A DNA stretch of 41,050 nt, from NCBI GenBank assembly GCA_003614675.1, contig ML002332.1, positions 1 to 41,050 of the forward strand. The letters are read 5' to 3'. Below are positions 11,172 to 38,615 of this stretch, in pieces. Positions within the stretch are counted from its first letter, which is position 1, and every line of letters begins with the position of its first letter. The stretch comes from Dimargaris cristalligena. Taxonomy: Eukaryota. The notes below the pieces were generated by a model, which searched no databases, had not been told where the DNA came from, and saw only the letters and a list, made by a program, of their open reading frames with translations. Both the position numbers and the translations under genes were made by a program.

Positions 11172-11714
11172 CTCCTTACCCGCCCGCCCCCACCGAAGAC
11201 TAACTGTCACGAATCCATTTAATCTGGCGCCCACCGTGCTTGCTTCTGAGATACCTACTCTCCTTGTTCTTGGTCCACATCTTCTATTCCTATTTTTTTT
11301 TGCCCTTCCCCTTCTTCCCTTCCTCTCGACCCCTCTTACTGTTGATAAATATAAATACATACATATATATATTTATAATTATTATTACGGTTCTATTACT
11401 GTTATGTCTCTTCGATTATCTATTCTTCTAAGTTAGTCACACTCAAGCCAGTCTGACCATTCCTTTTTGCAGCAAAGTATTTCATCAATTGATTTTATTT
11501 CTCCTTCTGTTTTAGCCTTCCACATCCATTTATTTCCCAACGAAATCTTTTTAAATTCCCCGTTTAATTAGCCTTGTCTTTTCGTTAATTGCAACCAAGC
11601 ATTAGGAGCGCCAATCGTTCCCTATTTCGCTCTAAATTTGGCACCACCATACAGCTGCCACTTTTCCGTCAACCCCCGCCATATATATCACCCCACATAC
11701 CAGCAATCGCCACC

Positions 11715-12719
11715 ATGTACACTCTATCAGCCAGCCCCATAGCGCCCCATAAGGAGGGCAAGAAGGACGCCCCCCGGCCCTACCAGTGCCCCATGTGCCC
11801 CAAGGCCTTCTACCGCCTGGAGCACCAGACCCGCCATATCCGCACCCACACCGGCGAAAAGCCCCACGGCTGCAACTTCCCGGGCTGCAACAAGCGGTTC
11901 TCCCGGTCCGACGAGCTGACTCGTCACCGCCGCACCCACACCAACTCCACCCGCCGCGATCGCCGCATGTATCATTCCGGTTCGCTCCTCAGAGGGCCCT
12001 CGCCGCATCACCACCACCACGACCTGCACTCGGCGCCTCTCGGTGGCCCCATGCTACCGTTCTTTAACGGACCCCGTTCCCACACCATGTCGTACCCCGG
12101 CCCCCCTTCGTCGGTGATGATGACCGACAAGCCCTTTTATTCTCCCCCGCGCTCGGCTTGGCGCCATGCCCCTTATCCTGCTATGCCTGTGAACCATTCC
12201 CGCATGCCTCCGACCCCGTCGCCCAACTCGTCCGCGGCTTCGACTCCCGCCGTGTCGGTGCCCCGGCTGCCGTCGCTGAACTCGCAGCTTAACTCGCCCA
12301 CCTCCCCCGGCCTGGCCCTGCCCGCCCTCTACCGTCCCCGCTCGGCCTCGGTGATTACCCTCCCGAGCGTCCAGCACTTGGACAGCTCCATCAGCAACTC
12401 GGCCTACAGCAGCGACGACGAAACCGCCTCGACTCACTCGGCGTCGGGATACCCCGAGGACGTGAACAGCCGCTATCGTGCCTCTTCTACTGCCTCCAGC
12501 GACTCGGCCGACTTCCCCCTGCTCTCTTCTTTGGAGTCGTCCCCCATTCTCCGTCACTCGGACATGTCCTCGCGGACTGATACCCAATCCCAGCCCCGTC
12601 TGAGTATCTTGGAAATTATTGAGTCTCCCCTGCCGCGCCAGTCGCGCGTGCTGCCCACCCCCAATGCCAAATGCGTTTTAGCCACATCTTCCTTTAAGAT
12701 GCAACCCGTCTTCGTATAA
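11715..12719 (+). CDS. creA: CreA/Mig1-family C2H2 zinc-finger carbon catabolite repressor (334 aa, intronless)
   Basis: ATG at 11715 in gccaccATG context; the ORF track starts upstream at a TTG. Diagnostic fingers [56 protein letters not shown], a Ser/Pro-rich middle, and a C-terminal LSILEII...RVLPTP segment resembling the CreA C-terminal conserved region. Strong GC3 codon bias. Confidence 0.95.
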
Positions 12720-13922: not shown

Positions 13923-14418
13923 CTCATCTTTGAGACCTTTCCCCGTTTTCCGTTGTGGAGGAGCTTGCCTCTCACAAGTAAATAGGGTCACCCATATGAG
14001 CTAGTGTAGACAGGGTCTGGTATCCCATTCAACTTGGTATTATTTACATGTACATACCACCGAACCATCCTGCATACGGCTGGGATATTCGCAGGCCAAG
14101 TTCAAGTTCATTCAATGCCCCGTTTTATCTAGAAAACGACCTCACCAAGAAAGAAAGCGTCCCACGTAGTAGTAGTGGTGGTGGTGGTGGTATAGCGCCC
14201 CCAGCTGTTTACAGGGGGATGAGCGAACGGGTATTGGTGCAATTTCGCAAGACTAACCTTTGTTGGATGCACCCGACCTTTTACTGCCATACTCGCCCAG
14301 CCCGAGACATTCAAAGTCTATGCAGTTACCCTCTCATCCTCTTAATTTCTGTTCATTTCACTTGTACAATATATATATATATTGTTATTAATCACTTCTA
14401 TCACTGACACGTTTAACC

Positions 14419-16292
14419 ATGGCTACTAACCCCGCTACTACCCGCCATCGAAAGGAGGATGTTCTGGAGTTTCTGGAGAGTCTTGACCTTACCGATGTCC
14501 CAGACGAGGTGGACCCCATCGAAGCTTCCGCGACCTCACCAACCGAGGGGGATGCGGGGCAGCCGGGCCGGGTTTCACCTGGAACTAAACTGGTGGACCC
14601 CGCCGCCCCTCCGAGTAGCTTGGCGGCTGGTTCCCCCCCAGCCTTAACTCCAAACCCAAACCCAACCCCAACCCCAGCCGCGGCCTCGTCCTCTTTTACT
14701 AAAACTACGGACCACCAGGACATGCTTAAATTCATTGACGACTTGACCGAATCGGCCCAGAATTCTCTCAACGCCAGCCCGACTCCCCCGACCACCTCTC
14801 AGATTCCCCCGCCTACCCCAGCTCGTCCAGCAGCTGCCACCACCACCACCACCTCGAACCCTTCCACGTCCACAACTGTGACCACCCAAGCAGACCCCCC
14901 GGCTGCTGCCGAACCTAGCTGGTCTTGGAACGGACTGTGGAACTCCACCTCCCATATCGTTAAGTCTCAGGTCAACATGGCTTCGAACAATAATTATGTG
15001 CAATCCACTTACTCGGCCGCCAAGGGAACCCTCGACACCGTCCGGGCCAGTGAACATCACCGCCATATCAATCACCACATCGGTGCCTTGAATCTGGGTG
15101 AACGGCTAGGGCGAATCGGTAAGTAAGCAGATGGGCTCACTGATTAGTTCCCACTGGCCTCGTCGAACTCGTATTTTTATTCCTCGGCGTCAATTAGTTA
15201 TTACAAAAAACGGGCTGCCATTGTCTGCGGCGCAGGATTTGTCTAATGCTAGCATTATTCCGAATGAACCTGGCGGTCTGTCGCTTGTCAGGTCTTTGAA
15301 CATCCCCTGTTACAAGCCTGTTAACTCCACCTCCGTATACCTTACCTCGGGCTTCCTTCTTCCCCTTTCCTGCTTGGGTTTTTCCAGGAACAAATCTCCG
15401 AAGCTCCGTTAACTCCGTAATTGACACCATTGCCCCACCTCTTGAGGATAACGGCGTATTCAATGTTGCCTACGCGGCCAACCTGCCCGGTGCAGACAGT
15501 CTCAGCCACCTGATTTACCGCGAATTTGATGCCGTTGTCGAGCGATTCAGCCCAGCGGAAGTACTGGTGAAGCCATCCCAATCTTTCGCCAAGGCTAAAG
15601 AGTTACATGCCGAGGCCGGCCATAAATTTATCGTTCCAAAGGGTATTGAGGCTGGATTTGCAAAGGCCCAGGTAATATAATTTTATTCGAACTGCAATTT
15701 TTGAACGTGCGAATATCTCATATATATATATATATATATAGCACTTCGGCTTCGGGTGGTTATGCCGAGTTTGGTTGTGGGGATACCAAGTCGACTGCCG
15801 CGACTTAAGAACTAATCACTAACCAGTATTGCCTTTTTCTCTAATTCGCCCCTACTTGTACCACAGTCGATTCTCGAAGAAATGATAACAACCGATCGAT
15901 CGGGGCTGTGTCGTGCTGCTGAGAAGCGGAAAGAAGAGATTGAGCGTAACCCCCACCACCCCCTCAAATCGCCCCATTGTGCGGTGTTAATAGTCCTCCA
16001 GCCATGCATGGCTGCTCCGGCCTCGAGTGTTTCAAGCATCTTTATTTGCGGCCTCTTGTTCGACCCCCTGCGGCAGATTGAGGCGCGGACCATATCCCAG
16101 TCCATCACGCTGGATACCTGGGTCGGAAGTGTCAAAGACGCCGACAGTCTGGAGTACGAGATTGTTCAAGACGTGATAGGCCTGACCACCAAGTCACTGG
16201 CCCACGACTTTATGATTGTGTATCCGAAGCACCATCCGACGTCGCCGACCACGGAGCACCCGGCTTCAGAAGAGGCCTCGGCACCGGCCTGA
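14419..16292 (+). CDS. MTC1: Mtc1-like protein (maintenance of telomere capping protein 1 family), 3 exons: 14419-15118, 15388-15671, 15867-16292 (about 469 aa)
   Basis: N-terminal EDVLEFLESLD and DMLKFIDDL acidic helices, SWSWNGLWNSTS motif, and exon 2 VIDTIAPP...LSHLIYREF recall the fungal Mtc1 family. Introns 15119-15387 (GTAAGT..CAG, phase 1) and 15672-15866 (GTAATA..CAG, phase 0) join the three frames without stops. Confidence 0.75.
15721..15740. repeat. (TA)10 microsatellite in intron 2 of the Mtc1-like gene
   Basis: Direct sequence. Confidence 0.95.
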
Positions 16293-17179: not shown

Positions 17180-18185
17180 ATGGCCGGCTCCAACTCCGTC
17201 TCAGGCACCACCACCACTCTTAGTGACCGGTAGGCTAATTCTTCCAAACTGCTTCAATCCACGGCTCCCTGCCTACTTCGTTCCGGGGGGAGGAGGGGGG
17301 GTCAACGTTATTCAGTGTAGTTATAAGCAGATGCCTGTTATAGACTACCTGGCCTGTCTTTTAGTCATTTACTTGATCCGCCTCAGGCCCATGGGGATCC
17401 ACAATGGACAGAGACGGTGCTGACGGTTACCGGCAGGCGCGTAGTGATCAACCCTCTAACCGTGATCGAACGCCTAAACTACAAGCAGAGAATCCTAGAC
17501 GGGTGTCCCTCCCGCCCCCATTCTGCCCCAGTGCACGTCGTATGGAACCACTCTCCGTCGTGCCCTTGCTAACGCCCATAGCCCTTGTCGCGTCTCTTTA
17601 TATTTATAATTATTATTTTTTTACTTCCCTTCTTCTCCAAATCTACCTTCACCCTTGCCTTCGGACCTCAGAATTGCCGCCCTTAACAAGAAGCGCCGGG
17701 ATGAGTACCAGGCCAAGTCCAGCAGCGACCGGTTCAGCCAACAAATGAAGAACCGCCGGGGTGCGGAGCCCACGACCAAGAAAGATAGGCGTACCATCGT
17801 CGAGCAGTCCTTGAACAAGTCTGCGGGCCGCCGTGGACGCCCGGGCCGTACCTCAGGCCAGGCGGATGCCGCCACCACTCCTGGCACCTCCTCTAAAATC
17901 ATTAAGAAGGCTATTCGCAATGTTATCGCCTCCAAATCTCAGTCCGCCGCCAGCCCCCGGCAGTCAATCAAGGCCAAGAAACCGGCCTCTGCCTCAGGTG
18001 CCAAGAAGGCCGGCTCGAGGAGTCGTCGCAGTGGCAAGGGCACCAAGAAGCCCGAAGCCAAGCCGGCCTCGAAGGATAATCTCGATGAAGACCTGGACTC
18101 GTATATGATGCAGGACGAAGGTCACGCCAAAAACAAACTGGACGCTGACTTGGACGACTACATGGGGGATGCCCCTGAGGCCTAA
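17180..18185 (+). CDS. CHTOP/FoP-like mRNA-export adaptor with duplicated C-terminal UAP56-binding (FoP duplication) motifs; exons 17180-17229 and 17672-18185 (about 187 aa)
   Basis: Exon 1 MAGSNSVSGTTTTLSD(R) with GTAGGC donor at 17230 splices in phase 2 to CAG at 17671, giving TLSDRIAAL. Lys/Arg-rich middle; C-terminus KDNLDEDLDSYM...KNKLDADLDDYM is the tandem LDxxLDxYM motif of CHTOP-type proteins. No RRM seen, so not Yra1/ALYREF. Confidence 0.8.
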
Positions 18186-22341: not shown

Positions 22342-22809
22342 TTAATATAGGTGCGGGGCCATGACCCGGAGCATCGGATGACCGGCCGTCGATCCCTCCC
22401 GCTTCATTTTTTCCGCCTGGAGGATATGTAAGCTCTGACTGTACTTGTTTTCCCGCGCACGTTGAAAAACCGATTTACCCACCCCATCCAGCACGTTGAT
22501 ATCCACCCCGTCGTCGAACGACAGCAGCTGGAGAAGGCCCCTGGGGTTCCGGATGGCCCAGAAAATGGGGGCCACCCCGTCGATGGTGTAGGTGGGGTCG
22601 GCACCGGCGCCCACGAGCAATTGGGCGCATTCGACGTGGCCGAGGGAAAGGGCCAGCATGAGGGAGTTGAAGCAGCCGTGGTCGTCGCGGATAATGGGGT
22701 TATTGACTAAGGGACGGTGGGCCGGATTGGCGAGGAGTTTCCGGAGGCCCCGGGAGTCGTTGGCCATAATGATGAAGTAGAAGGAAAATAAAATCTGTTC
22801 GGTATCCAT
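22342..22809 (-). CDS. Small ankyrin-repeat protein (155 aa)
   Basis: caccaccATGG start context. Ankyrin-like repeats NSLMLALSLGHVECAQLLVGAGADPT, GVAPIFWAI..LLQLL..GVDINVLD and GKSVFQRA. GC3-rich compared with the flanks. Confidence 0.8.
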   Translation of the reverse strand: MDTEQILFSFYFIIMANDSRGLRKLLANPAHRPLVNNPIIRDDHGCFNSLMLALSLGHVECAQLLVGAGADPTYTIDGVAPIFWAIRNPRGLLQLLSFDDGVDINVLDGVGKSVFQRARENKYSQSLHILQAEKMKREGSTAGHPMLRVMAPHLY

Positions 22810-25800
22810 GGTGGTGGGATAGAGGAGAAACGCTGAGTAATAAGCTGCAACTTGCTTTAGTGGAGGTACTTGGCTCTGTTAGGTCAAAGAATGTGGGGTT
22901 TTAAGTCAGGATATTTTATGGAAAGGGAAGTACTGCCGGTTAGTGACCATATGGTGATAATGACAAGATAATAGGGAAAGAATAACCTGAAAGGGCATAA
23001 TCGTATTTTCCGGACACCGTAGAAAGTATAAATTAGAAAAATTAGAAAGCCGACTATTAAATACAAGGGTGAAAAGGTTCGCCAAGAAAGGGGAGGGGTG
23101 GGATTAAATACTGACTAGTTGGCATCGCACCGTAATACAGCGGTGAATCATTAATGCCAATGGGCCAAGGCTTGGCACCACTGGGGTGAGCTCAACAGGT
23201 ACCAGAACCAAGAAGTGCCCGCTTCCGTGGAATGTTACCAGCCCGGTTTGTCACCACCCGCCCATTTAAAGAATAAGGAGCACTTACGTATTTTTGAATT
23301 AGTAATGGTAATCTAGAACTACAGATAAGAAAATAGTTGGGGGAATATAAAAAGACCTATTAGAATTGTACAATAACAGAACACGGGTGATAATTGGCCA
23401 CCGTGTGGCTAAATGATTTTTTTAATAAAAAAAACGGCGGACGTAGAGATAAAGGGTTAATAAGCCAGTTGGTGGAGGGGGTGTGTCATTTATATACGTG
23501 TGCGGGTGATCATATATTTGTATAACCATGTGGACTACGAGAAATCCTCGAAACCGCAATGTCTAGCCTTTCCCGCGGTTAATAAACGGATGATAACAGG
23601 GGAAGAGGCCGATGCTCGGCTATTGCCGGTGGTGTAGACCCTGAATGGGGACAATCTGGCCGAGAGGAAGCGGGGGATGTGTTCATCTACGTATGGCCAA
23701 CATATTAATATACATGCAGAGACATCCATTTGGTTCCACGGTGAATTATCGTATGTTCCAAACCTTGTCGTTGGGGCCAGTGGCCTCATCGGCAGAGGAG
23801 CATGGGGCGGGAAGAGGAGACGAGGCGGTGGGTGGAAGGCCTAGACGTTTGGCCGGTTATTGTAAAGGGATGGTCATATAAAAATGGCCTGGTACGTACG
23901 GTATGACCCCGGTGACCAGTTGAAGAAATCTAAGGAGAGGAGGGGGGGTGCTTAATGGGGCGGGTTGGAGAATCCGGACCGGGCTCCCGGACCCGTAGAC
24001 CAAGAGGGATGAAAAGTGGGGCCATTTATGCGGAAAAGGCGTACGAAGCACGGCCGGCTCAGCTGACAAATGTATGACAGCGGCCGCTAATACAAGGGGA
24101 AGGTGGAGGGTTGGTGTAATTACTTGGCGAGTATAGGGGCGGGGCAAGGTGGATGCCATAGATGGGTGGCATTATTGCCTTGGGCGCCAATGGTGGCGGG
24201 TGGGGACGGGATAGCCGCATTGTCCGACATTGGCGAAGTTCATTGAGTGCGCTGCTTCGAAGGCTGGCCGTGTTCGGGTGGTTTGGGCGGAAGCTAATAA
24301 TAGCAGGACGGGGCCGGTTCGGAAATGTCGGAAATTAAAAAATAATAATTAAATTAGGAAGTATGATGAGGGGGTGGAATGGCGTGTTTAACCGGTTAGG
24401 GCCCACTGAACGGAATTTGACCATGCCAAATGACCATTCACTATTCGTTTTTTTTAATACCGAGCGGGATGGATGTTGTCCCATAGCCCCAGCCCGGCTG
24501 AAATTCTCGAAAAAATAAAGCGCGTAATATACATGACCGGGCCAAGATAGGACGGACGACCGTACAGTAGGGACTAACTAAGGCAGGCTATGTTCCAAAA
24601 CCACGCACTACAAGCTCCACCAACTAACTAGATGCTGTAGTGTATTTTATTTCTCACTCCAAATTAACCTATACTATTAGGAGTGTAGGGAATGCCAATG
24701 AAGCAGTATGGAGCTCGGCTTTCAATGAATACCAACGGTAAATTTCCCTAGCAGGATAGTGTTAGCCATGGGATGCTCATCCCCCTCCTCTAATAGCATT
24801 TCATGTTTGGCTGATGTGAGAGCGCTTCGACCCATTCTGGAAGGGTATTTTTACGGGCCACTACTATATATGTAAACCCAACCGGATTTCACGGTAAGAA
24901 GCCAAGTCTCTTAGCATGGCTGTCTGCAATGTCTGTCGTGGACAAGAGGCGCTATTATTTGTGCATAGGATTGAAGAGCGGAAATCTCCCAATAGGCCGA
25001 ATCCATGTCCCTTCACCATAAAGACCATTTGGGTATGGTAGGCCGGGTAATTTAATGGGGTATTAATATTGATTTCACGCCAACAACAAAATAGCCTCTA
25101 CATGCAATAGCAGCGGATCACTAATGTTGGATGCAGGAGATTAAATTCGGGGTCAGTGGGCAGTTAAGGAGGAAGCATAAGCGACAGGTAACTTCAGTGA
25201 CCACCCAATCGGCCAACCACATCCCAGTGGGGTCGGGGGATGTGCGGTACCTAGCTAGCCACGCCTGTTCGGACTTTGGAATGGAACGGCGAGTGTACGG
25301 GATCAACCGAAAGTATTCACCGGCCCATGTCTGAGTTTGACAGGGATAACGACAAGGGCTTCTCCCCAGTAGCTTATATAGGACAGTGTGTAGACAATCA
25401 CAAGCCGCCAGGAACCCAGAAGAATGGACCAGCAAGCACCCTTGATTGTCGCTTGGACACGGCCATGGATGCCCTAAGCAGGAAGGACAGCATTCCTTTT
25501 TTCTTCGTTACTAAAGTGGGACAAGTATTACTTGACCATGCAGCGGTTCAACGTGTGTGGCAACGCTTTATTAAGCCTCGTCCCCTGAAAAGGGGGAAAT
25601 GGCGGCGTGACCAGCACATTAACGAGTATCCATCGAAGTTTCGCGGAGGGTCACACGCAGCTGGGCTGGTATACGAGACTAAAACCACCCGCAGGGGTTG
25701 TGAAGTGGTTGGTGATGGTATTGACGGAGGAGGAACCCCCCACACTGAGAGAGAGAGAGAGGGAGAGAGAGTTCAATACCACTACTTACTACATCATCCC

Positions 25801-26117
25801 CTGTCTTCCAACCAATGCCCGTTGCACTGCCCTTTTTTCCCTATCCTTGCCCTTTGTCCTGTTCTTGCTATCCTTATGCCGCCTTATCAACTACCCCACT
25901 TGACGTGCCGCTCATGATCTTCTGTCTTGTATTCCCTGTTTGCTCCACGTATTATTAGCATTCCCTATTTTCATTCTACTTACCCGCCGGCTGTGGTGAA
26001 AGTGTGCATAGCACTTCTTCTACCCTTAGTCTATTTCTCAATCAGCATTGTCTGGCCTAGTAGCTGACCCGTCTGTCTCTCTACCTCTGGTCGATCCCAT
26101 AGTGTAGCCCAAGTACC

Positions 26118-27362
26118 ATGTCCATTACTGACCTACAGGTGGTCCGCTCATTGGCGGCCGTACCCCTCTCTATCGTGATCCTTTCAGCATGTGGTGCAAT
26201 CATTCTATTGGCCATCACCATCCTGGTCTATCGCAAAGTACGCGGTAGCTCGGACCTACCCAAATACTCCACTTCGACTTCAACCTCGTCCGAAAGCCGG
26301 CCTTTGCTGGGGTCGGGGGCGGTAAGTGCTGGTACACTGGCCAATGGTGGATATCGGGCGGCTCCTCACACCCGCGCCCAGGGCCCCCCCGCTCCCGGGT
26401 CACCCTATAACCGCGACCGCCAAACCATTATCCCCAGTAGTATCGACGCCCACATCACCATTAGCCCTCTGGTTGGCGGCGGCTCCCCAGTATCCTCCCC
26501 CCTGGCCGTCCAACCCAGTGAAGAAATTGAGGACCTGTACCTGGCCGATGAACTGACATCGAGCCCCGAACTTGCCTCTACATCATTCATTGAGCACCTG
26601 GATCGTCGCAATTTATCACTTCCAGCCAGTAATAGTAGTAGTAGTAGTGGTGGTGGTGACGCGGCTGATGCCAACCGGATTATTGTTGTTATCAGTGATG
26701 AAAATGGGCATGAATCAGCCCGCTTTACGTCGGATTTGGTAGCGGATTCCACCACGGCCACCTCCACGACCGATAGCCCGACCGTAACCCGGCCCGCGTC
26801 GATTAACACCAATCTCCCTGTATATGATACGCTTGACCAAACCGCAGTTCCCAGCCCCGTATCTGAGGTAGATATCGCTGAGACCCCGTCACATCCAGCC
26901 GGCTCGCCCCTTCCCCCCACCGCCGATCGGAGCCTATCTAATCCGGTAGCCTCGACCCCCACGTCGCCTTCCAATGGACCCACGGCCCCTCCCTCATCCA
27001 CCCCCTCCCCTACTAAGCTGCAGTGCACCGACTTCACCCCGTCGCCCGAAGCACTCCCGTCAATACTGGAACGTGCCCCCAAGGCGTTGGCCCAGCTTAA
27101 CTCCAATGCCCCGGAATTTATCCCCGCTGCTGTCAAATCCACAACCCCCTTCGTTGCTCGATGCTGCCTAGATGGGACCGGCCAGTGTGACTCCGAGGCC
27201 TGCCCCCATGTCCGCCCGATAACCGTGTGTCCCGACTATCCCCAATGTAAGGCGGGAAATGATTGCACCCACCAACACCCTGAAGAAACAACACCGGCCC
27301 CTAAGCCCCGCCGCAAGCAAAAGAGGACCCAGAAGAAGAAGGGTGCTCGGCGAGTCCGCTAA
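26118..27362 (+). CDS. Single-pass membrane protein with dileucine motif, long disordered Ser/Thr/Pro region, PAM2 motif, CCCH zinc finger(s) and basic tail (414 aa)
   Basis: accATG start. Hydrophobic helix aa about 12-38 followed by RKVR; ESRPLL; QLNSNAPEFIP; CPDYPQCKAGNDCTHQHP; C-terminal KPRRKQKRTQKKKGARRVR. Confidence 0.85.
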   Translation: MSITDLQVVRSLAAVPLSIVILSACGAIILLAITILVYRKVRGSSDLPKYSTSTSTSSESRPLLGSGAVSAGTLANGGYRAAPHTRAQGPPAPGSPYNRDRQTIIPSSIDAHITISPLVGGGSPVSSPLAVQPSEEIEDLYLADELTSSPELASTSFIEHLDRRNLSLPASNSSSSSGGGDAADANRIIVVISDENGHESARFTSDLVADSTTATSTTDSPTVTRPASINTNLPVYDTLDQTAVPSPVSEVDIAETPSHPAGSPLPPTADRSLSNPVASTPTSPSNGPTAPPSSTPSPTKLQCTDFTPSPEALPSILERAPKALAQLNSNAPEFIPAAVKSTTPFVARCCLDGTGQCDSEACPHVRPITVCPDYPQCKAGNDCTHQHPEETTPAPKPRRKQKRTQKKKGARRVR

Positions 27363-30300
27363 GTGCCGTTCATTCCCCAGTTCCCCCGAACAACCCAGCA
27401 CACTTGAAGAAGAAAGAAATAATAATAACAACAGTAACACTGACTCAGTTGTGATGATCAACTTACTCACTCATGAGTCACTGGAATGGAAGTGAAAGAT
27501 CCTTTTACATCTTGACGAGAGACATGTGATTTTATATTGAACCCTTTTTATTTGCACCAATGTTGGCAATAGTGATGTTGGCCATGATTGGTGGTGGCTC
27601 TGTGGGTGAATATTGGAGAGGGGGGGTCAGAGAGATCAGGCAGAGGGTATAGTTTGATGGTGCAAGCTGCTGGTTGACGGCAGACTATCCACCCATTCAA
27701 TTCGGATTCGACCAAAGCTCTGATTTAATTAATGTTGCAATATCTCTGGGGTTCATTGTTATTACGATTGGTATATTATCTTCAGGTAGCTTTTTATTAT
27801 TAATATTATTATTTTTATATCGTACTCCACCGTCGGATGACTCATAGTATGAGTATTACTACTATCACTACCATTATGTACTATACGGCCGTCGAATCAC
27901 ATATAGCCCATGTGGCTAACCGAGATCAGATTGTTGTTGGGCACCAACCTACCGCATTGCCTTTCATTATTAGGACAAAATTACCATTAAACAGCTAAAA
28001 TACGTCACTGATCGTGGATTGAATAAAGGGTCTCGATTGGGGATGAATTATCTAAGCTTGTGGGGATTGCCCTATCGAAGCAGTAGGTCGTTTTATAGCA
28101 GGGCCCGTTTAATCCCTATAGGTAGGTGTGGCTTGTATCACACTGGCCAGATCAGCAGAACCGGTTGATTGGATAGAGTGGGTTACAGCCAAGCAACATT
28201 TAAGGTTGCTCGCTACGTATCATTATGGTTATGGTTATGGCTGGGGGAGATATACCTCGCCGCCCAGAGAACGGGGCCGGTGGTGGTTCATTTATTATAA
28301 ATTAGGCCAGGTTATATTGGGATGGGTTGATAACAGTTGTATAGTAGCAGGAGAATATGGTCCACAAGTGTACGTTTGAAGAAGGGGAAGTCCAAAACAG
28401 TGGGGGGAGATCCACTCCAGGATTCGTGTGGGCCCCTCCTCTTTCCTTCCCAAATTCCGGTTAATTTTAGCGACCCCTGAATCATGAGCCCCTTTCGTTG
28501 TTTCGCTTAGTAAGTATTGTCTACAGCAGGAGGGCAACGTGTTGCTGCTGACATGTGTGTGTGTAATTCGGGGAGAATGGTTTTTTATAATTCGACCTCC
28601 CCTGATGAGTGGTGGGGTTCTTATCACCTCCAGGGTACGTACATGTATCCCCCAACGCCAATTGATGTTGACGCTTGGATTTGAAAAGGTATAATAAATT
28701 ACCTCACCCATTAATTATTCCACTGGTATAGCAGCTGATGATGATATGTGAGAGCTGGAGAGGGTGAAGTAGGGGAAGGGATGGACGCGTACAGTGGCCC
28801 CCCTGGCTTCGCTCATTGTCGACCCCACGGGTAAGGAGACGCAGACAATCCTGGGGCTTGGTACTGTATGGGGGACACCCCTCCCCACCATCACGGTGCA
28901 CGCGTCCCACCACCACCCAGTTCCAGTTCCAGTTTTAGTTCGCAGTCGCCTTATCCATCATGTTATTAGTATCTCCCCTGGTTGTGAGAGTGAAAGTGAA
29001 AGTGAGAGAGAGAGAGAGAGGTGTGTTTGGGCCACGGCGATTAGTGGATGGGCGAGTGTGTGGCGGCAGCCAACTACCAACCACACAGTAGGAGGTGGGA
29101 CATTAGTTGGAGGTGAGCCGTGGGATATTCCCCCGCGGACCAGTTAGGAGAGAGTATAGGAGCGAGCGAGTGAGTGAGTGAGGAAGGAGATGATAGCCAG
29201 CCAGTGGCGATCGCTATTATGTCTCTCTCTCACTTTCACTCACATCCGCCGTTTTTTTTCCAGTTGGGAAGGCGGGTATTTGGATATAAGGAAGGCGGGT
29301 ATTTTATGGTGTGGGGTCCCCCTACCCTCCCGTGATCCGTTTCGCGTCTTTCTCTCTCTCTCTCTCTCTTTCTTCACATTTTTCTTTCCCTTCCCCTGCT
29401 TTTTTTATATCTAATTTATTATTTTCTTTTATTTGTCCCGCTTGCCCCATACTCGGTAAGTCGCGTCGTTCTTCTATTCGTCCGTTTCTGCCGTTTCCCC
29501 CATCCATTGTCCCATTTTCTCTTTCCTCCTATCCTATCCTATCCTTAGCTTGGCCTCCTTTTGGGCCGCTGCATAGTAGTATAGCCAGAGTCTCCTTCGC
29601 CTACGTACGGAGAGATTCCCCCCGTTCTTAGGACACCGATCCACACCCCCTCCGCTAAACCAGCCCTGCCTTTACATGCTCGTTTCTCTTTCCCATTCTA
29701 TTTCGGTTTGGACTTTCCCTTTCTTCCTTTCCCTCCTCTAACCCCCCTCTCCCCCATTCTCTCCACACTTTCGCTGGGAATTCCCTCGTCGCTTCGATTC
29801 CACGTCCGACTAGTTCCCTCGTCTTTGTAACGCGAAAGTGTGGTTCGACTCGTTACTAAGCCCGCTTAGTACTACTTGTAGTTTAGCTCCTCATTTCAGG
29901 CTTGTTTACCCTTTCTGCCTAACCGCATAACTGAACCTTCCAGGTATACAGCCCCCCTCCACTCATCCACAGCCTCCCGGTTATCCGTGTATACTTCTCG
30001 GCTGTCCAAAATCATCATTTTTATATATATTATAGAACCATATTGTTCGACCCAGCTACCTAGTGTCGTCGCTTTCAGGTAGGTTATCTATACATAATTG
30101 TGGGAGTAATCCCCGTATGGATTTGGTCTCACCGCAGTAAGTGGGGTAGTGCCGAGCGGGGTTTGCTTAACCACCACCACCCCCCAGTCTCGTAAAGTTC
30201 ATTCATGCATTTATTCATCGTTATTCGTTCGGGCTTACTTCATACCCCACGGTTCTCCGATGTGTGTGTCCCTTTTACCGGGATATGCATACATTCCATT

Positions 30301-30588
30301 ATCGCTGCATATATTCACGATATCGTCCCGTTCTTCTATAAATATCTCCTTTTTCATATGATTCCAACCTTGACCTGTCGCTCTTACCTCTTGATTTTCT
30401 CCTGTTGCCCTAATCCCTATCCCCTCGCGAACCTTCGGCAATCCATATTACTGTCTATAAACTAATATAATGTCCCTCCATACCTTTTCATGTCTATTTG
30501 CTCCCATCTGCCTTCGACCGGGTCATATCCCTGGATCATCCATTAACTACAATCTATACCCAAGGTAGTCCCGAATCCTCAATTACTC

Positions 30589-33092
30589 ATGAACCCGTCG
30601 CATGACCCCGCCTTCTCAGAGCACTCGTAAGTCCACCCCTTTAATATACATATATTCCCATTCTCCCTATCGAATTTCGACGGGAAATCCGGCCCCATTC
30701 CTTCTACTTGAGAGAGAATTACTAATACCCCTCGTTAACAACCCGCCTTTCCACCCCGTGTGCTTCTCGACTCCAATTGATAAATTCTAACCTACCCTTA
30801 CCTGAACCATCTGCGCACATGTCCCTCTTTTCCAGCCCTAATAATGATCATAGTTTAGTTTCCGACCCCATGAGTATTAGCTCCCCAGTCGAACCCCCTA
30901 CCGATTACCACCCGCCTTTTGCCGCCAAGGCCCCGCGATCCGACTATAGCAACGGCCACGGCCTATCCTCTGCACCCACCGACAGTCGTGGATCCAAGCC
31001 CCTGTCTAACCCGCCCTCCCACCCGTCAGACTATGTGCCATCTACCCCATCTAACCGACCATCCAACGGAACCTCATCGCTGGACTCTCAACATAAATCG
31101 TACCCGCCCATGTCGAAAGAACAAACCAAGTACTGTCAGGCCATTGTGCGGTCTATGAAGCGGCACCGGGACGCCGGCCCCTTCTTGGAGCCCGTTGATC
31201 CCGTTAAACTCAATATTCCCGACTATACCTCCATTGTGAAAAACCCCATGGATATAAGTACCGTCGAAAAGAAACTGACCTCTGGTCAATACGCCGACGT
31301 CAGTCGATTTATATCCGACGTGGAATTGATTTTCGCCAACTGTGTTTTATACAACGGGTCCGAATCCGTAATTGCCAAGATGGCCCAAAGTCTTGAACGG
31401 TTGTTTAATAACCAGGTAAAGAAGATCCCCAACTGGCCCCCCGCGGGTGGTCGTGGCGTCGCATCCAAGAAGCCGCCCGCCAAATCCAAGGACCCGTCCA
31501 CTACGACTCACCTTCCCATATCCCGGACTCCGAGCGACCACCGGATTAAGCGGGATAATCCGCCGCCCGGTCGGGATCCTTCCACCCCCATTGATGCCGC
31601 GCTCCAGCGACGTCGCTCTCGCCCCGGCTCCGACCCCCAGCTCAAATTCTGCCACCAAGTGATTCGGGAGTTATTCAAAAAGTCCCACGCCAGCTTCGCT
31701 TATGCCTTTTACGAGCCAGTGGACTACGTGACCCTGAATATTCCTGACTACCCCCACATCGTCAAACAGCCTATGGATCTAACTACCCTCAAGAAGAGAC
31801 TGGAGAGTGGCCAGTACGACAATGCCGATGAATTTGAAGCCGATGCGCGCCTAATTTTCCACAACTGCTATCTTTTTAATCCCCCAGATAACCCCGTTCA
31901 CCAAATGGGGCGCATGCTAGAAGACGTCTTTAACAAGAAGTGGTCCGAGCTACCACCTCCCATGACCCCCGGATCGGCCGCCCTTTCCCCACCACCACAG
32001 CCCCGGGAGCCCGTTCGGACCCACCCACCTACTTCGCAAACCCGGGTGATCCACGACGACGAGCCATCGGACGACCAAATGTCGGAGGTGGAACAGAATG
32101 ACGACATTGCCGAGTTTGAGCGTCACTTGGAAAAGATGGCCCGCCAACTAGAAGTCATGAAGCAAGCTAAGCGCAAGCAGAAGGGGGGTGAGGTCTCGAC
32201 ACCTCCCTCCGTTCATCGGCGTAAGTCGTCCACCAAGCCACCCTCCCACCCGTCCCCACTGGCTGCTCCGCCTCGGGGACGGACAGAGCGTCCTACTGAT
32301 GCCCCCCGTAAGCGATCGCAAAGTTCGGTTGGTGGGTACGGCAGTGGTTCGGACGATGCTCCTAATTTGGGTCTCGCCCCCGCGGGTGGCGTTCGGGAGA
32401 TTACCTATGAACAGAAGCAGGAGCTCAGCGATGGTATAAGCAAGCTCTCCCCCGATCACATGGTCGAAGTCGTTTCGATTATTCGGAGCTCTATGCCCGA
32501 GATTAATGATACGGCCCAGGACGAGATTGAACTGGATATCGATTCCCTGGATCGGAACACCCTCTGGCGACTCTACTCCTTCGTTCGGGAACACACCCAT
32601 CCCCCGCCCAAGAAAGTCCGCCGGGTAAGCCAAACGGTCAATAGCTATACTGCGCCGATGCCCCCACCCCAAGCTGGCCACCCACCTGCTGGGAAGCGTC
32701 AGCGGTTGCAATCGGCGGTTATGGAAATGGATCAAACCCGGCGCATTAGTCAGCTGGAGGAAAAACTGCGGCAGTTTGATTCTGTTGTTCGGGCGTCCCC
32801 TAAACGTAAGTACCTTATTGGGTTGGACTCGAACGATCGTCCTATTTTTTTGTATTCCCGCATTGGTTCACGGGTGGACCCTTGGGCCAACGCCATGCCG
32901 ATTGATTATTGTTTAACCTAATGTATCTGTATGTATATTCATCATATTTTGTCCCGTATATTCTCCCCCTTATTAGACCACGAGAGCGAGATTGACATCG
33001 AGCGTGAAGATGACTACAATAGTAGCAGCGATAGTGGCAGCTCCAGCGACTCCGGATCCGATTCCGATGATTCAGGTAGCCAAAGCGACTAA
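30589..33092 (+). CDS. BDF1: BET-family protein (Bdf1-like: two bromodomains + ET domain + SEED tail), short form; exons 30589-30626, 30836-32805, 32977-33092 (about 707 aa)
   Basis: BD1 (PFLEPVDPVKLNIPDYTSIVKNPMDISTVEKKL..FANCVLYNG), BD2 (FYEPVDYVTLNIPDYPHIVKQPMDLTTLKKRL..FHNCYLFNP), ET domain (ITYEQKQELSDGISKL..EIELDIDSLDRNTLWRLYSFV) and a Ser/Asp-rich last exon. Introns 30627-30835 (GTAAGT..CAG, phase 2) and 32806-32976 (GTAAGT..TAG, phase 1) keep frame. The first exon is less certain; an alternative ATG lies at 30819. Confidence 0.92.
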
Positions 33093-34459
33093 GCTTCCTT
33101 TTTTTGATTACATAGCCATATGTTATTGGCTCTTATCTTGTGTGCAGCTAAGTTCCCCGCTTCTTATTTCCATCTTTCCCAGTCGTACATGCCCCGTACT
33201 CCACGCGTTGGGGATACGAGTCCATTTTAATCCCCCTTTCCTCCCTTAGAGCTGTTTTGTGCTTCGCCGGACGCCTGATTTTAGGCGGCTCCACCTTTCC
33301 TATTATACCCATCACCCGAGCCCTGTGGTCCATATCCCACCCGTACCTCTTTTTCGACCTCTCTATGCTTACTCTTCGATTGCTACGGATTATGCCCCTC
33401 CGACTCCGTTTTTCGGGGGAGTGTGGTCGTTTGTCAGCTCACCTGGTTTGGTTCTTCCCTTTGCACTAGTGTTGGCTTCTGGATTTATTTTTTCCGCGAC
33501 ACCCTGTATGCGTTTTCGGTTCTTCGACGGTGGTTCGAGATGTTGTGAGTGAAAGGTGAGAATACGGGGGAGGAGTGGAGCGGTCGGTCTAATACGAGAT
33601 GGGTCGATTTTTGTGCGGATTGGGAATCTAGGCTTTTAAACCTACGTCTTCTTTATATTTTGAGGTCCAAGTCCATGTCACCCACCATGACTTCGGGGAC
33701 CCCTGTAATTTTTCTTGGGAGGTCAGCCCACCGTTTCCGGAAGAAAGGGGAGTTATTGCGACCCTTTATTTCCCATTCCCATTCCCATCGGTTCAATTAT
33801 TGTTTTCATTGCTGGTCAAGCCGACACGGTCACGGATACATGTGTGGATATGATTGCTGGGTCTGGGTCTTGTGGACTTTTCTCTTTGGCTGTAGGTGTT
33901 TTGTCATTCTACTGCCCGCGGGGTGGAACTCGTTCTTTTATATTTCTCTTTCAGACACTGAGCGTACGCTTGGCTGCTTGTATTTTTGGGGCTGGTGCTC
34001 CACAACCCCCAACCCCCTTTTCTTTCTTATTATCCCCATGTAACTCCTACCTACTCTCGCTGTCGGTATTTTTATCCCCTGTAAAAAGTTTCTCCCTTAA
34101 TGATTGTTATAGCCTGCTACTAGTTTAGATCTGTTCCGCCTATTCATTAGTCCCTTCCGATTCTCCTTCATTTATCCATGACTACGTGTCGCGATATTTA
34201 TTTATTTCCGTCCTCAGTATTTGGTTAGATACTGTTTTTTTTTTCGATATCCATTACGTTCCCCACCCGCACTTCTCACTCCTCCCATTTCATCCTCGAT
34301 CGGACGTTACACTTAGGTTGTTTGTGAAAGGGTGTGTTTCCTTAATATTTGGTGTGGTGGCGGGACAATGGCCGGTCGTACCTACTTTGGGAATCCTAAG
34401 CGACCGTTGCAGTTTTTCTTTTAATTATTATACCTTTCAACTTATCGTACTGGGTGACT

Positions 34460-34465
34460 AATAAA
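34460..34465 (+). terminator. Candidate polyadenylation signal AATAAA for the short BET transcript
   Basis: AATAAA at the end of a long T-rich, 3'UTR-like tract following the stop at 33092. Confidence 0.35.
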
Positions 34466-35452
34466 TCAATCACCCACGGCATCGGCTATTCAAATTAATA
34501 ACTTGACTGCCCCTCTTCCTTACTTTCCCTTCGAACCGTTTCACTCTCCAAACCCGACCCCCCCTCCCCAGCTCTTCCCCTATTTTCCCAATTATAAGCT
34601 CGCTCGTCCTCTCTGCTATTGTGGATTCCGGAAACCATACTTGGGATCAGTATGTCGACTGTTTCTATTAATTAACAGTTGTCGGATATCAGGGTTCTGA
34701 TCTCTATTGGTCTTTTTTCATATTCCTCTTTGAGGCATGGACCTTTAGCGGCTCCCGATTTCCTTTTTCCCCAGATTTTTGATGTGCTTTTTCTCAGGGC
34801 ATTGTGGGTGGTGGGACTTTGGGACTGGTAAGGTTGGATGGTGAAGGTTGGAACGGTGAGGTTTGGACTCTAATGTATCGAAGGAGGTGTGTCTTGGAAG
34901 TGGGGAAATACGCGGTCTGATGGGAATCGACTGTTGAATAGGTGCACTTTGTTGAGTATATTCTGGTCTTGTTACTGCGAATCTTTGATACGTGTTCCCT
35001 TCACCAATTATTAATTGTTAGGAACCTTATATGCGATACTTTGGATTCCAAATATGGGGTTTGTATCCTTGATACTTTTGCTAACCCCTTTTTATTAATT
35101 TCCATGCCAGAAATTGTGTGGCAATGGAATGGTAGAAAGAATTCGTCCTAGAGTATATATATTTCTGCGCTGACTGACTGACCATTATTACTACCCTCTG
35201 TATGTTTATTTATTAATCATTCGTTATTGATACTCGCCGATTGATCTATCATGTCTCTATCGATCAATTTATGGTAAGTTACCCCTGCCTAATCCTTGGT
35301 GCTCGCTCTTTTCTGACTGATTCGGGGGTTCATACCCTATTTCCCCGGACTAGTATAATCGGAACAACTGTGTTCTCAATCATTATCTGTATCATTTGTC
35401 TACCGCATTTTGATTTTCCCTGTTGTAATGACAAATAGTCGGTATGTCTTAG

Positions 35453-37291
35453 ATGCACCGAGACGGGCCACTAAAGGGCCCAAGGTCACTCTCAATGTAG
35501 CCCATAAGCAACCCGGTGTCTATGCTAATAGTATTTCCTTTGACATCGCACCAGCCCCAGTGGCGGGTCGTTCAGACTCTAACTCTCATCCACTGTCGTA
35601 TTCTCCCGGCCCACGGTTCGAACATCAACACGTGGAAAATACACAAGGGATGGTTGAAAGCCCCACTGTCCCTCAGGATCAGGTACGTCCTATAGATAGC
35701 ACTATTTATACCTTGGATATTATTGTAGTCTTCCATAGAGGAAGGCCCTGTGGTAATGTATATGTGTTTTTTTTTTGCATACGCAGCACTAATCACGGCT
35801 TCGCCCCTACTTACCAGTACAAAAAGATACTTGGTCATTCATTGGCTTAGATCACAACATTGAGCCTAACTAACTTTACGTACTCCACTATATTCCTATT
35901 GACCTCGTCGGGCTGGCTCGCCAGATAACATTGACTAATGTTGACCACTGGGCGGCCCTTGTTAGCGAGACGGATGTCCTCGACGGTGAAGACAATGGTT
36001 CCATAAAGTTGCTGTTAGGTACTTCTCCTGAGTCGGTACCAGCACCCGACGTCCAGGTAAGGCATCCGTTTAAATATTCTGATCGTTTTTTTACTTTGGG
36101 GTTCGTCTGCCTTATTTTTGTAGCCACCGGTGCGATTACCCATGTCCGCCCATTTGCAGACAATTGAGATTATATCGTTGTTGATGGATGCACCATTTAT
36201 TTAAGAGGCCTCTCAACTGACCATTGTATTTTTTTGTGTTTCTAATTTCACGTCTCCTGCTTCTACTCTAGGGTCATCAGTCAATCAACAGACCGCCGAC
36301 CGTCGCTGTATCAAGTCCGATTCAAGCCCCAGAACCAGAGCGTAAGATTAAACTGCCCGTTCAACGGCGCCAGAAACTAATCGAAGAGGAGAATGAACGG
36401 CTTCGGTACCAGAAGATGCTGGCCCAACGAGCCGAGCTCCGGCAGCGTCGCCAAGAAGAACGATTGGAGCGGGAACGCCAGGATCGGGCCATTACCGGTA
36501 TTATGGCCGATCGTCGTATTGTCCATGCATTTGAAAAGACCTTGCCTGTTAAGCACGATTGGGACCGGATGGAGCGAGAACGTATTCGGTTAATTGGCTC
36601 GGTGTTGGGCGTCCACCGTCGGTCCCGTGCCACTGGGTCGGGTCCTGTCACTCCGAGCGCCCCTTATGCGGCGACCTCGCCATTGCCGGGTACCCCGCAT
36701 GGGTTCGCCCCCACAAGCCCAATGGATATCATGGGCTCAATACCCACGCGTGATCCCTTCCACCGGCCCGCCACATCACCAACGTCCCCACGGGCGCCAC
36801 CGAGCCACTTGTCACCTGATTTGCGCCCTGATGGCAACGATGACATTAAGGGAAAATACCTCGAGTATGTTGCTCACGAACCAACCTCCGCCCCCCTTTC
36901 TCAACAGCCATCTCCAGCCGACATGGGTCCCAGCCACGTTTCTTCGCCGATTCTAGGCTATGAGGAGGGTCCATCGCGGTCGGCCGCTCATGGTGGTGCC
37001 TTTTCGTTTTCGTCGAACTCTTCCTCCCCCCACATTACCAGTGACCTAGGTATGATGGCGGTGGATGACCCGCCCTCATCCAAGCGGTCATCAGGTGAAC
37101 TGAGTGAGGCATCTACTACGCCACGAACTGATTCTCAGCCTCTCCAATCAACCCTAAAATCGGCTGCCAGTTCTGGTTCGTCCCGCGTGGACTGCTCGGC
37201 CCTGGCTGCCAATATTCCGATTGTAGCATCCGGCCCTATTGAAGATGTCGAAATGGAATACGATACCGAAGAGGGCGAGTTGGTGATGTGA
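35453..37291 (+). CDS. Three coding exons (35453-35682, 35925-36056, 36272-37291): either the C-terminal extension of a long BET isoform or a stand-alone coiled-coil protein (alternative first exon 35251-35273 spliced to 35439)
   Basis: Phase-0 introns 35683-35924 (GTACGT..CTAAC..CAG) and 36057-36271 (GTAAGG..CTAAT..TAG) join open frames. The product has ITLTNVDHWAALV, an Arg/Glu coiled coil ending IVHAFEKTL, a disordered tail and a terminal EEGEL. The 5' connection is ambiguous. Confidence 0.75.
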
Positions 37292-38615
37292 AGGGTACTA
37301 TTTTTCAGAATTTATCCACTGACCGTCATTTCACACTGTCGCGGTTGGGGAGAGAGGGGGGAAGTTATGCCATTTATACAACTGCCTTTTCCCGTCTCTC
37401 TTATATTCTGACAGTATTAATCTTTTTATTCTTCACTCGGACCACAAGTCCAGGTGGCTTTTTAAATATATATATATATACTGTTTTAATCAATTTTCGA
37501 CCAAACATGAATCCTCAATGAATAGTTTGAATGATCCCAAAAAAAGGGGGGGGGGCTAGTAATGAAAGTAGAAGCATGTGAGGTAGTATAGAATGGTCCG
37601 GTCATTATGCATATTTCAGTTTAGTCGTCTGGCGATAAGACCATGCATGTTATTTTGGGTAGTATATCCCATTCGGGCTTGCCATGGTTCGGAAATATGA
37701 AACCCCATGATCATTCCGTTTGGCTATTGTTGGAGCAGCAATTAGCAAGGTTTTGCTGATTGAAAGTATCCATTAAATAAAATTTTGTGCACGTAATTGA
37801 ACCAGTTGGATAAGGGTTACGGGTGGAATACAATGAGCGGAATAGGTGGAGTAGTAAATTTTTTAACGACTAAATCCTGTCTTAAAAACCGGATTTTTCA
37901 CCATGCAGCTGTCTTGAATGTATCCCACATTAAACATTCCAAGTTAATGACACTGAGTTTAGTGCATAGACATCATGCATTAAGGTCAACGGTTAATTTG
38001 GCATGTTGGTAAGGCTGCCATTAGAACTAAAATCAAGTAGTATGTCCATTCTAACGGTGGTCTACGTATAGGTTTTTAGACTAGTATCGAAAAACTGGAT
38101 AGTCAGTGAGGCCAGTCGAAACAGTGCAAATAATATCATGTATACCACCAGGCTATCAAATTAAACCCATCATTTTAGATGTTGACAAGCCCATTTTAAC
38201 TAGCCGAGTTGGTAATGTACAGCAAAATTTACAAGGTGATTTTTTTTAAATTCACAATCCCAGCCTTGTCCATACAGAAACGGGGGAATCGCCATAGTAA
38301 TCGAGAAATTCCAAGTATAATGCCGACTACTACTACTATTACTACCCTTTATCGTAGCTGGCCGTGCAACCAAACTATTAGATGGCTACTACCGATCGGT
38401 ATTTATTCTCCCCAAAAGATTCGATATAAAAAATAGGGGAATATCGCCCTTGTTTGGCCATTGGAAAGGGTAGCCTTCAAAAAGTCAAATCAGGATGAAG
38501 CATAAAAATAGGATAGTAAAGGTCTGGGAGAGGGGCCTTAAAAGCATCAGTTATCGGAAGGGTGGGGTACGAAAGCGTTCGAAAATGGGGGAAGTAGGAC
38601 GTTTTGCTTAACTTG

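Follow-up and report, generated by a model that had tools for sequence, protein, structure and literature searches.

A candidate counterpart of the BRD4 long-isoform C-terminus encoded downstream of a short BET gene in Dimargaris cristalligena

The 41,050-bp contig ML002332.1 of Dimargaris cristalligena (Kickxellomycotina, Dimargaritales; assembly GCA_003614675.1), analysed here over its entire length and referred to as the window, carries on its forward strand a gene of the BET family (30589-33092) followed by a gene for a protein of 472 residues (35251-37291). Two neighbouring genes on the same strand are the best explanation of this arrangement, and the comparisons described below suggest that the second gene encodes the equivalent of a C-terminal extension which in other early-diverging fungi is part of the BET protein itself. 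The upstream gene is a short, Bdf1-like BET, recognised by its Pfam domains and by an open model with exons 30589-30626, 30836-32805 and 32977-33092 (the first of them placed by inference only), which encodes 707 residues with no internal stop. The main exon (30836-32805, 656 residues) contains two bromodomains (171.5 bits in Pfam) followed by the ET domain (83.5 bits; PF17035, residues 522-584 of the exon translation, 32400-32588), so that the tandem bromodomains and the ET domain stand in the order which defines the BET family. The last exon (32977-33092) is Ser/Asp-rich and resembles a SEED region, ending in ...SDSDDSGSQSD before the TAA stop at 33090-33092. Orthologues of this BET are known from Tieghemiomyces, D. 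verticillata and D. xerosporica, and the tail ...SDSDDSGS[QH]SD, directly followed by the stop, is kept in all three Dimargaris species. Among the 120 BET proteins which we fetched for comparison, 15 end in S-G-x-x-S-[DEN] (the glycine and four residues, then the stop). These tails are seen in Kickxellomycotina, Mortierellomycota, chytrids, Blastocladiomycota and Basidiomycota, and the C-terminal tail is thus deeply conserved. The public model of the D. cristalligena BET (P0003, 447 residues) is partial, skips internal segments and has neither end; the open model of 707 residues agrees better with the orthologues. The Tieghemiomyces BET (P0004) is probably mis-annotated at its C-terminus, since the model seems to run into the intron past ...R-A-S-P-K rather than being spliced to the Ser/Asp exon.

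The four exons of the downstream gene (35251-35273, 35439-35682, 35925-36056 and 36272-37291, plus strand) translate exactly to a hypothetical protein of the NCBI/JGI annotation (BJ085DRAFT_40608, here P0001). The first is a mini-exon of 23 nt (35251-35273), which contains the annotated ATG with A at -3 and is followed by a GTAAGT donor. The first intron (35274-35438, 165 nt) ends at the first AG after the pyrimidine tract (35438), with an in-frame ATG at 35428, just upstream of exon 2. Exon 2 (35439-35682) includes another AG at 35452 and encodes the motif ISFDIAP (35533-35553), and exon 3 (35925-36056) opens with a tryptophan-centred stretch, I-T-L-T-N-V-D-H-W-A-A-L-V (35925-35963), which we will call the W motif. 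Exon 4 (36272-37291) encodes a long helix (36359-36541) with an end ...R-I-V-H-A-F-E-K-T-L that resembles the C-terminal motif (CTM) of animal BRDT, a second helix (36551-36607) with W-D-R-M-E-R-E-R-I-R-L, a Pro/Ser-rich disordered part and an acidic end ...V-E-M-E-Y-D-T-E-E-G-E-L-V-M (37226-37288) before the stop at 37289-37291. The RQEER...FEKTL stretch which an earlier, first-pass annotation had picked out in this exon is indeed present at 36449-36544. AlphaFold2, run with an alignment of four sequences, predicts a mostly disordered chain (mean predicted local distance difference test score, pLDDT, of 48) with a confident helix over residues 163-223 (pLDDT 87-98), ending at F-E-K-T-L, and a second helix over residues 227-245. 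A short helix of low confidence covers the W motif, and pLDDT is below 50 outside the two main helices. The protein family has no Pfam match and no PDB sequence match at E<=10 with the family profile, while the ESM Atlas returned only generic helical look-alikes with TM <0.5. We also considered whether K-I-K-L-P-V or the N-terminal R-Y-V-L might tether the protein to the ET domain, but across the family these motifs disagree with the patterns published for ET-binding motifs, and the idea was dropped.

Of 1.84 billion representatives searched with a profile of the D. cristalligena and Tieghemiomyces proteins, only four reached E<=0.001, and every one belongs to Dimargaritales: D. cristalligena, Tieghemiomyces parasiticus, Dispira parvispora and D. 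verticillata. The motifs ISFDIAP and NVDHWAALV are each invariant in all four members, and a hydrophobic pair before x-x-F-E (IV, MI, MV or VL) is retained in every one of them. Residues 154-170 of P0001 contain E-P-E-R-K-x-[KR]-L-P-V-Q-x-R-Q, a motif which the four stand-alone proteins share with little or no variation. The fused BET extensions described below lack it, so that it may have arisen newly in the detached form. Linkage in the relatives was judged from locus tags and contig sizes alone. In D. verticillata the BET (H4R34_002817) and the homologue (H4R34_002818) have consecutive locus tags on one contig of 23,812 bp, and the homologue is annotated separately and begins with Met. The adjacency of BET and homologue thus holds in two Dimargaris species, D. 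cristalligena and D. verticillata. In Tieghemiomyces, the BET lies on a contig of 22,324 bp and two identical copies of the homologue, both 5'-partial, lie on contigs of 90,134 and 70,697 bp, while the Dispira contigs (3.6 and 6.6 kb) are too short to judge linkage. The first-pass annotation had proposed to look in related genomes for conserved linkage and for fused orthologues: adjacency was found in D. verticillata and fused forms in other fungi, but the Tieghemiomyces copies sit on contigs other than that of the BET.

Fused forms of the downstream protein are found in other fungi. Six long BET proteins of early-diverging fungi carry a matching extension on the same polypeptide as the bromodomains (together with the ET domain in five of the six), in contrast to D. 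cristalligena, where it belongs to a separate gene model. One of them is that of Umbelopsis vinacea (P0105, INT44_007108, 694 residues), with E-I-V-L-Q-N-E-D-K-W-L-A-L, D-P-L-W-Q-K-F-Q and a helix ...K-R-I-M-E-R-F-E-R-E...E-W-R-D-E-M, ending in I-V-D-M-D-M-E. Haplosporangium (P0019, BGZ51_005098, 979 residues) and Dissophora (P0013, BGZ98_001650, 911 residues) have M-S-F-D-V-A-P, N-M-E-H-W-A-A-F, D-P-A-W-E-Q-F-Q-K and a helix ending in F-E-x-x; the counterpart of ISFDIAP reads MSFDVAP or MSFDVAA in two long BETs of Mortierellomycota. Spiromyces (P0018, EV182_000138, 758 residues) and Mycoemilia (P0008, H4219_000100, 879 residues) show ...A-F-E-R-E-L...E-R-I-R-x-L-L-G-L-P and the end ...D-L-E-E-G-E-L-[IL]-E. 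The sixth protein, P0068 (934 residues), has the W motif, ...R-I-M-S-R-F-E-E-N-M and the end E-E-G-E-L-I-E; since all of it is encoded on a contig of only 3187 bp, its gene must have few or no introns. In an alignment of ten sequences the shared elements are collinear: ISFDIAP, the W motif N-x-D-x-W-A-x-L, an FExxL helix of about 60 residues, a Pro-rich part and an acidic EEGEL/DMD end, with E-R-x-R-I-R-x-L-x-G and Y-x-x-x-S-P-L-P as further common elements. We define the fungal long-BET extension by this collinear set, and the downstream protein of D. cristalligena contains it. The fused extensions lack L-P-V-Q-x-R-Q, in contrast to its invariance in the Dimargaritales proteins.

The statistics of these comparisons support the shared motifs. 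A hidden Markov model (HMM) of the family, searched against the 120 BETs, found P0105 alone at E<0.01 (28.1 bits, E 7.2e-9), and hhalign of the full-length family against full-length P0105 gave 96.4% (E 1.2e-9, 181 columns). The same comparison gave 90.6% (E 1.3e-6) with Haplosporangium and Dissophora, 35% (E 4e-4) with Spiromyces and Mycoemilia, with a second collinear match on the terminal EEGEL, and 20% with P0068. Against all six fused extensions the family extension reached 96.4% (E 1.3e-9), and an HMM of eight fungal sequences scored 67.6 bits on Dissophora. In a quick tree of the BETs, in which P0068, P0103 and P0105 sit on long branches and are placed with little certainty, the D. cristalligena BET falls within a Kickxellomycotina clade beside the long BETs of Mycoemilia and Spiromyces. 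Taken together, the collinear motifs, the hhalign and HMM statistics and the tree indicate, at the level of sequence comparison, that the downstream gene corresponds to a long BET's C-terminal half. The Mortierellomycota add a further aspect, as their BET orthologues, interleaved in the tree, are annotated either as short proteins (...SDSDDSGSSS[ND], then stop) or as proteins continuing past ...SDSDDS with Asp (P0019, P0020), and this break point and the following Asp coincide with the donor and the join that had been proposed for D. cristalligena. P0011, P0021, P0020, P0019 and P0013, of which some are short and others long or spliced differently, all diverge right after ...SDSDDS, which suggests alternative or inconsistent models at one donor. 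Two further observations concern other long proteins. The Glomeromycota BETs P0082, P0064, P0085 and P0097, of about 1000 residues, have long C-terminal coiled extensions with weak scores (E 0.006-0.4 at Z=120) against a profile of the family and Umbelopsis. P0103 (957 residues) has five Pfam bromodomain stretches and no ET domain, and ends in an Arg/Glu coil and ...L-D-L-E-Y-K-H-T-A-L-A-S-Y-I-D-N-L-E..., which resembles the CTM of BRDT.

Does the likeness extend to animals? The C-terminal region of animal BRDT and BRD4 holds their P-TEFb-interacting domain (PID); the first-pass annotation had called the end of the downstream protein PID-like, relying on human and fly strings, in place of which we used fish BRDT proteins with the Pfam domain BRD4_CDT as the animal reference. 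Only part of that claim survives: there is profile similarity to the BRDT end, in two regions, but no Pfam BRD4_CDT match. When cut segments are compared with the fish BRDT C-termini, the two top collinear matches of hhalign are the CTM, with a score of 31.1, and the W motif, with 28.6. In 300 column shuffles the scores never rose above 26.9 and 16.1, respectively, so that the resemblance of the motifs goes beyond composition. When the family and BRDT are compared at full length, the best local match of the whole comparison falls on the 42 residues that end BRDT (25.9%, P 7.3e-4). A profile of eight fungal sequences, selected without a CTM-like regular expression, matched the BRDT C-terminus at 95.3% (E 2.4e-8, score 62.6, compared with a mean of 20.9 and a maximum of 33.6 in 100 block shuffles), and one of ten fungal sequences including the fused forms matched the BRDT end at 94.3%. 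Against full-length BRDT, the match of the fungal profile falls on the last 41 columns (93.3%), and over these profiles with fused relatives included (93-95%) the E-values run from 1e-7 to 2e-8. Taken by themselves, the four fused forms match a separate region of 60 columns, containing the W and FxxF motifs, at 90.4%. In the opposite direction, the BRDT C-terminal profile searched against 120 single sequences placed the family members at ranks 1, 7, 13 and 18, along with Umbelopsis at 2, P0068 at 3, P0103 at 8, P0019 at 9 and P0013 at 11, each on its cognate motif. The W motif NVDHWAALV aligns to ...L-K-N-A-D-S-W-x-S-L of BRDT and to the W motifs of the Umbelopsis and Mortierellomycota BETs, and the spacing from W to F is 116-129 residues in seven of eight fungal proteins, D. 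cristalligena included, and 131 residues in fish BRDT. HMMs made from fish BRDT only (whole C-terminus, W motif and CTM) were discarded as too narrow, as they gave the family 8.2 and 3.4 bits and decoy BETs up to 6.1.

Several results speak against a relationship with the animal proteins and should be set beside these matches. BRD4_CDT (PF17105) matched none of the four family members at E<=10, with nothing in exon 4 at E<=1, and none of seven fungal or other bromodomain proteins tested at E<=10, six of which are long BETs; the positive control, BRDT P0116, scored 79.5 bits. The family alone gave low hhalign values against BRDT (26-42%, P 3e-4 to 7e-4), the fungal-BRDT link in HMMER has E 0.002-0.02 at Z=120, and the hhalign alignments are small and hand-assembled, with Neff (the effective number of sequences) of about 2 and no secondary-structure term. 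Itzen et al., 2014 reported that activation of P-TEFb by BRD4 needs two basic clusters and a C-terminal hydrophobic pair. In D. cristalligena, R-L-E-R stands where the alignment places the four-Arg cluster, so that the cluster is not kept, while the hydrophobic pair of the family does align with the BRD4 pair which they describe as necessary. With the evidence on both sides considered, the relationship between the fungal extension and the C-terminal region of animal BRD4 and BRDT is probably a true one. The fused fungal forms, together with the extension that matches BRDT, make it plausible that the long BET design is old.

The comparison with the known systems brings out both similarities and differences. 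The C-termini of animal BRD4-L, BRDT-L and Fs(1)h-L have the same order of elements, from the W motif through a coil to a helix ending in a hydrophobic pair, x-x-F-E-x-x-L. However, the animal BRD4_CDT forms the very end of a protein with bromodomains, while in the family the helix is followed by another 164-270 residues and the annotated protein has no bromodomain. The FxxF of BRDT and of the Mucoromycota and Mortierellomycota proteins is not evident in those of Dimargaritales. Yeast Bdf1 and Bdf2, like other short fungal BETs, have the same two bromodomains, ET domain and Ser/Asp tail as the upstream gene, and in D. cristalligena the sequence equivalent to the extension sits 2.2 kb downstream of such a BET. 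Human BRD4-S and BRD4-L differ only in the last three residues of the short form, according to PMC3834312. The short form ends soon after the Ser/Asp-Glu region in both cases, three residues later in human BRD4-S and five codons past the candidate donor in D. cristalligena. The BRD4 isoform pair is experimentally established in animals, whereas D. cristalligena is known from an annotated short end and a separate gene alone. PMC13373324 regards the BRD4 C-terminal motif as specific to the animal long isoform, with no equivalent in yeast, and says that the C-terminal fragment of the long isoform can work alone through CDK9/CCNT1.

How the two D. cristalligena genes are connected depends on the region between them. 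The first-pass annotation had proposed a hidden BRD4-L-like isoform, made by splicing from within the last BET exon to the downstream exons, and the elements of this join are where it had placed them. The donor, CGATGATTCAG followed by GTAGCC, is at 33075/33076, in phase 1 and five codons (G S Q S D) ahead of the TAA at 33090-33092; the acceptor, TCTTAG followed by ATGCACC, is at 35452/35453; and by enumeration, joining 33075 to 35453 yields an open frame of exactly 1162 residues, ending at 37291. Two of the annotation's own reservations also hold: the proposed intron of 2377 nt is about 10 times longer than the five introns of both genes (165, 171, 209, 215 and 242 nt), and its donor, GTAGCC, is without the +5 G found in all five known donors (GTAAGT three times, GTACGT and GTAAGG). 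The in-frame join itself is not beyond chance, since all four GT dinucleotides of the last BET exon are in phase 1, as is the strong donor at 32805/32806, and 5 of 20 donor-acceptor pairs are fully open, every one of them via the AG at 35452. This is the second AG, 14 nt inside exon 2 of the annotated downstream gene, while BET donors joined to the annotated AG (35438) meet a stop after four residues. The AATAAA on which intronic polyadenylation had been based is present at 34460-34465, but it is unremarkable, as there are 20 plus-strand copies in the window. The spacer (33093-35250, 2158 nt) has 36% T and 19% A, corresponding to an intron-like T-over-A skew of about -0.32; the skew was rejected as a test for an intron because the region upstream of the BET is equally skewed. 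No Rfam match was found in 33000-35500, and neither of the two spacer open reading frames (ORFs) has a Pfam match. Considered on their own, 28800-30588 and 33093-35250, which are both located upstream of plus-strand genes, show the window's strongest excess of T over A on the plus strand (skew about -0.25 to -0.46). Introns are skewed alike, but no such skew is seen in the 3' flank of the downstream gene.

Are these then two genes or one? Judged from the proteins compared above, the ancestral state is that of a BET fused to its extension, and Dimargaris therefore represents either a fission or an unusually long intron. We lean slightly towards fission of an ancestral long BET with the downstream gene now expressed independently. 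The C-terminal half would have become a gene of its own in Dimargaritales, expressed from its own start, and the detached protein might, in a manner like the BRD4 C-terminal fragment, work in trans as a putative adaptor with a kinase-binding or activating role. The well-formed mini-exon with ATG, the short introns of the two genes (165-242 nt), the kept short tail and stop of the BET, the complete D. verticillata model and the apparent separation in Tieghemiomyces all support fission. On the opposite side, two of the four members (Tieghemiomyces and Dispira) are annotated as 5'-partial with no start codon, as internal exons would look, the N-termini ahead of ISFDIAP are poorly conserved in the family, and the Tieghemiomyces separation, which favours independent genes, may result from an assembly break in the spacer. 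The co-orientation, the adjacency, the in-frame join and the fused ancestry would also be compatible with a long intron missed by gene predictors, which is possible. Under such a one-gene arrangement, which we consider distinctly less likely than fission, a phase-1 donor would be spliced over an intron of 2.4-2.6 kb to the AG at 35452 to give a BRD4-L-like isoform of 1162 residues (from 33075/33076) or 1129 residues (from the GTAAGT at 32805/32806, skipping the Ser/Asp exon), while the short form would arise by read-through to the stop at 33090 and polyadenylation within the intron. Each of the two joins keeps an open frame as far as 37291, the long BETs of Umbelopsis, Haplosporangium, Dissophora, Spiromyces and Mycoemilia, as well as P0068, include the homologous region in their own polypeptide, and the short and long Mortierellomycota models part at the same residue, and with the same Asp, as the D. 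cristalligena junction. Human BRD4-S and BRD4-L, as described in the source cited above, are of similar design, and the missing start codons and the intron-like skew of the spacer could be added to this side. However, the intron would be an order of magnitude longer than any known one here, the donor lacks its +5 G, chance joins in frame are frequent, and the T skew is not diagnostic. The acceptor would have to be the second AG, within an annotated exon, and R9 and D13, which lie upstream of or span the AG at 35452, are common to the Tieghemiomyces protein, while the D. verticillata homologue has a Met of its own and the downstream gene its ATG mini-exon.

A broader version, in which the short/long BET design is ancestral to fungi and animals and D. 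cristalligena still makes an isoform of about 1130-1160 residues with the FExxL helix coupling the BET to a Cdk9-type kinase, seems to us rather doubtful, and a little more so than the long intron as such. In that case the phase-1 donor after ...D-D-S would compete with read-through to the short conserved tail and stop, and the long isoform would be made over the 2.4-2.6-kb intron beside the stand-alone transcript or in place of it. A branch point directly after the Ser/Asp region may nonetheless be old, as is suggested by the S-G-x-x-S-[DEN] tail of 15 of the 120 BETs and by BRD4-S and BRD4-L differing at the end. At the other extreme, the downstream gene could be a lineage-specific orphan, its likeness to BET and BRDT being due to chance or to convergence of Arg/Glu-rich helical motifs and its position to coincidence. 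The lack of Pfam, PDB (E<=10) or usable ESM Atlas matches would fit such an origin, as would the failure of the fish-only BRDT HMM to part the family from decoys and the CTM alignment, which is largely Arg/Glu-rich coil. It is, however, very improbable and strongly disfavoured: six collinear motifs are common with the fused fungal BETs (E 1e-9), composition-preserving shuffles reached the scores in 0 of 300 and 0 of 100 trials, two independent regions match BRDT with the W-to-F spacing conserved, all four family members are in the top 18 of 120, and the adjacency to the BET recurs in two species.

Outside the two genes, the window contains ORFs for a C2H2 zinc-finger protein (11589-12716, plus strand), a protein with a FoP_duplication domain (Friend of PRMT1; 17610-18182, plus strand) and an ankyrin-repeat protein (22345-22878, minus strand), and the large ORFs 26103-27359, 25255-25914 and 14392-15123 have no Pfam match. 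Just past the downstream gene, at 37470-37560, the sequence has a (TA)n run as well as an A7-G9 homopolymer pair.

We found no description of a fungal counterpart of the BRD4 C-terminal extension in the literature searched, which covers the field in part. On our best reading, what appears to be new here is that early fungi have a BRD4-L-like extension and that Dimargaritales encode it apart from the bromodomains; the function of the detached form, including any binding to Cdk9 and its cyclin, is putative. There is also an annotation problem, in that early-fungal BET orthologues are modelled as short or long depending on the species, and the curated Pfam model misses the fungal extension. If the relationship is true, the BRD4-L-like extension would predate the split of fungi and animals and would have been lost in yeasts. 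The Dimargaritales would then represent a natural experiment, in which the extension has been severed from the bromodomains, with a bearing on whether the BRD4 C-terminal fragment works alone.

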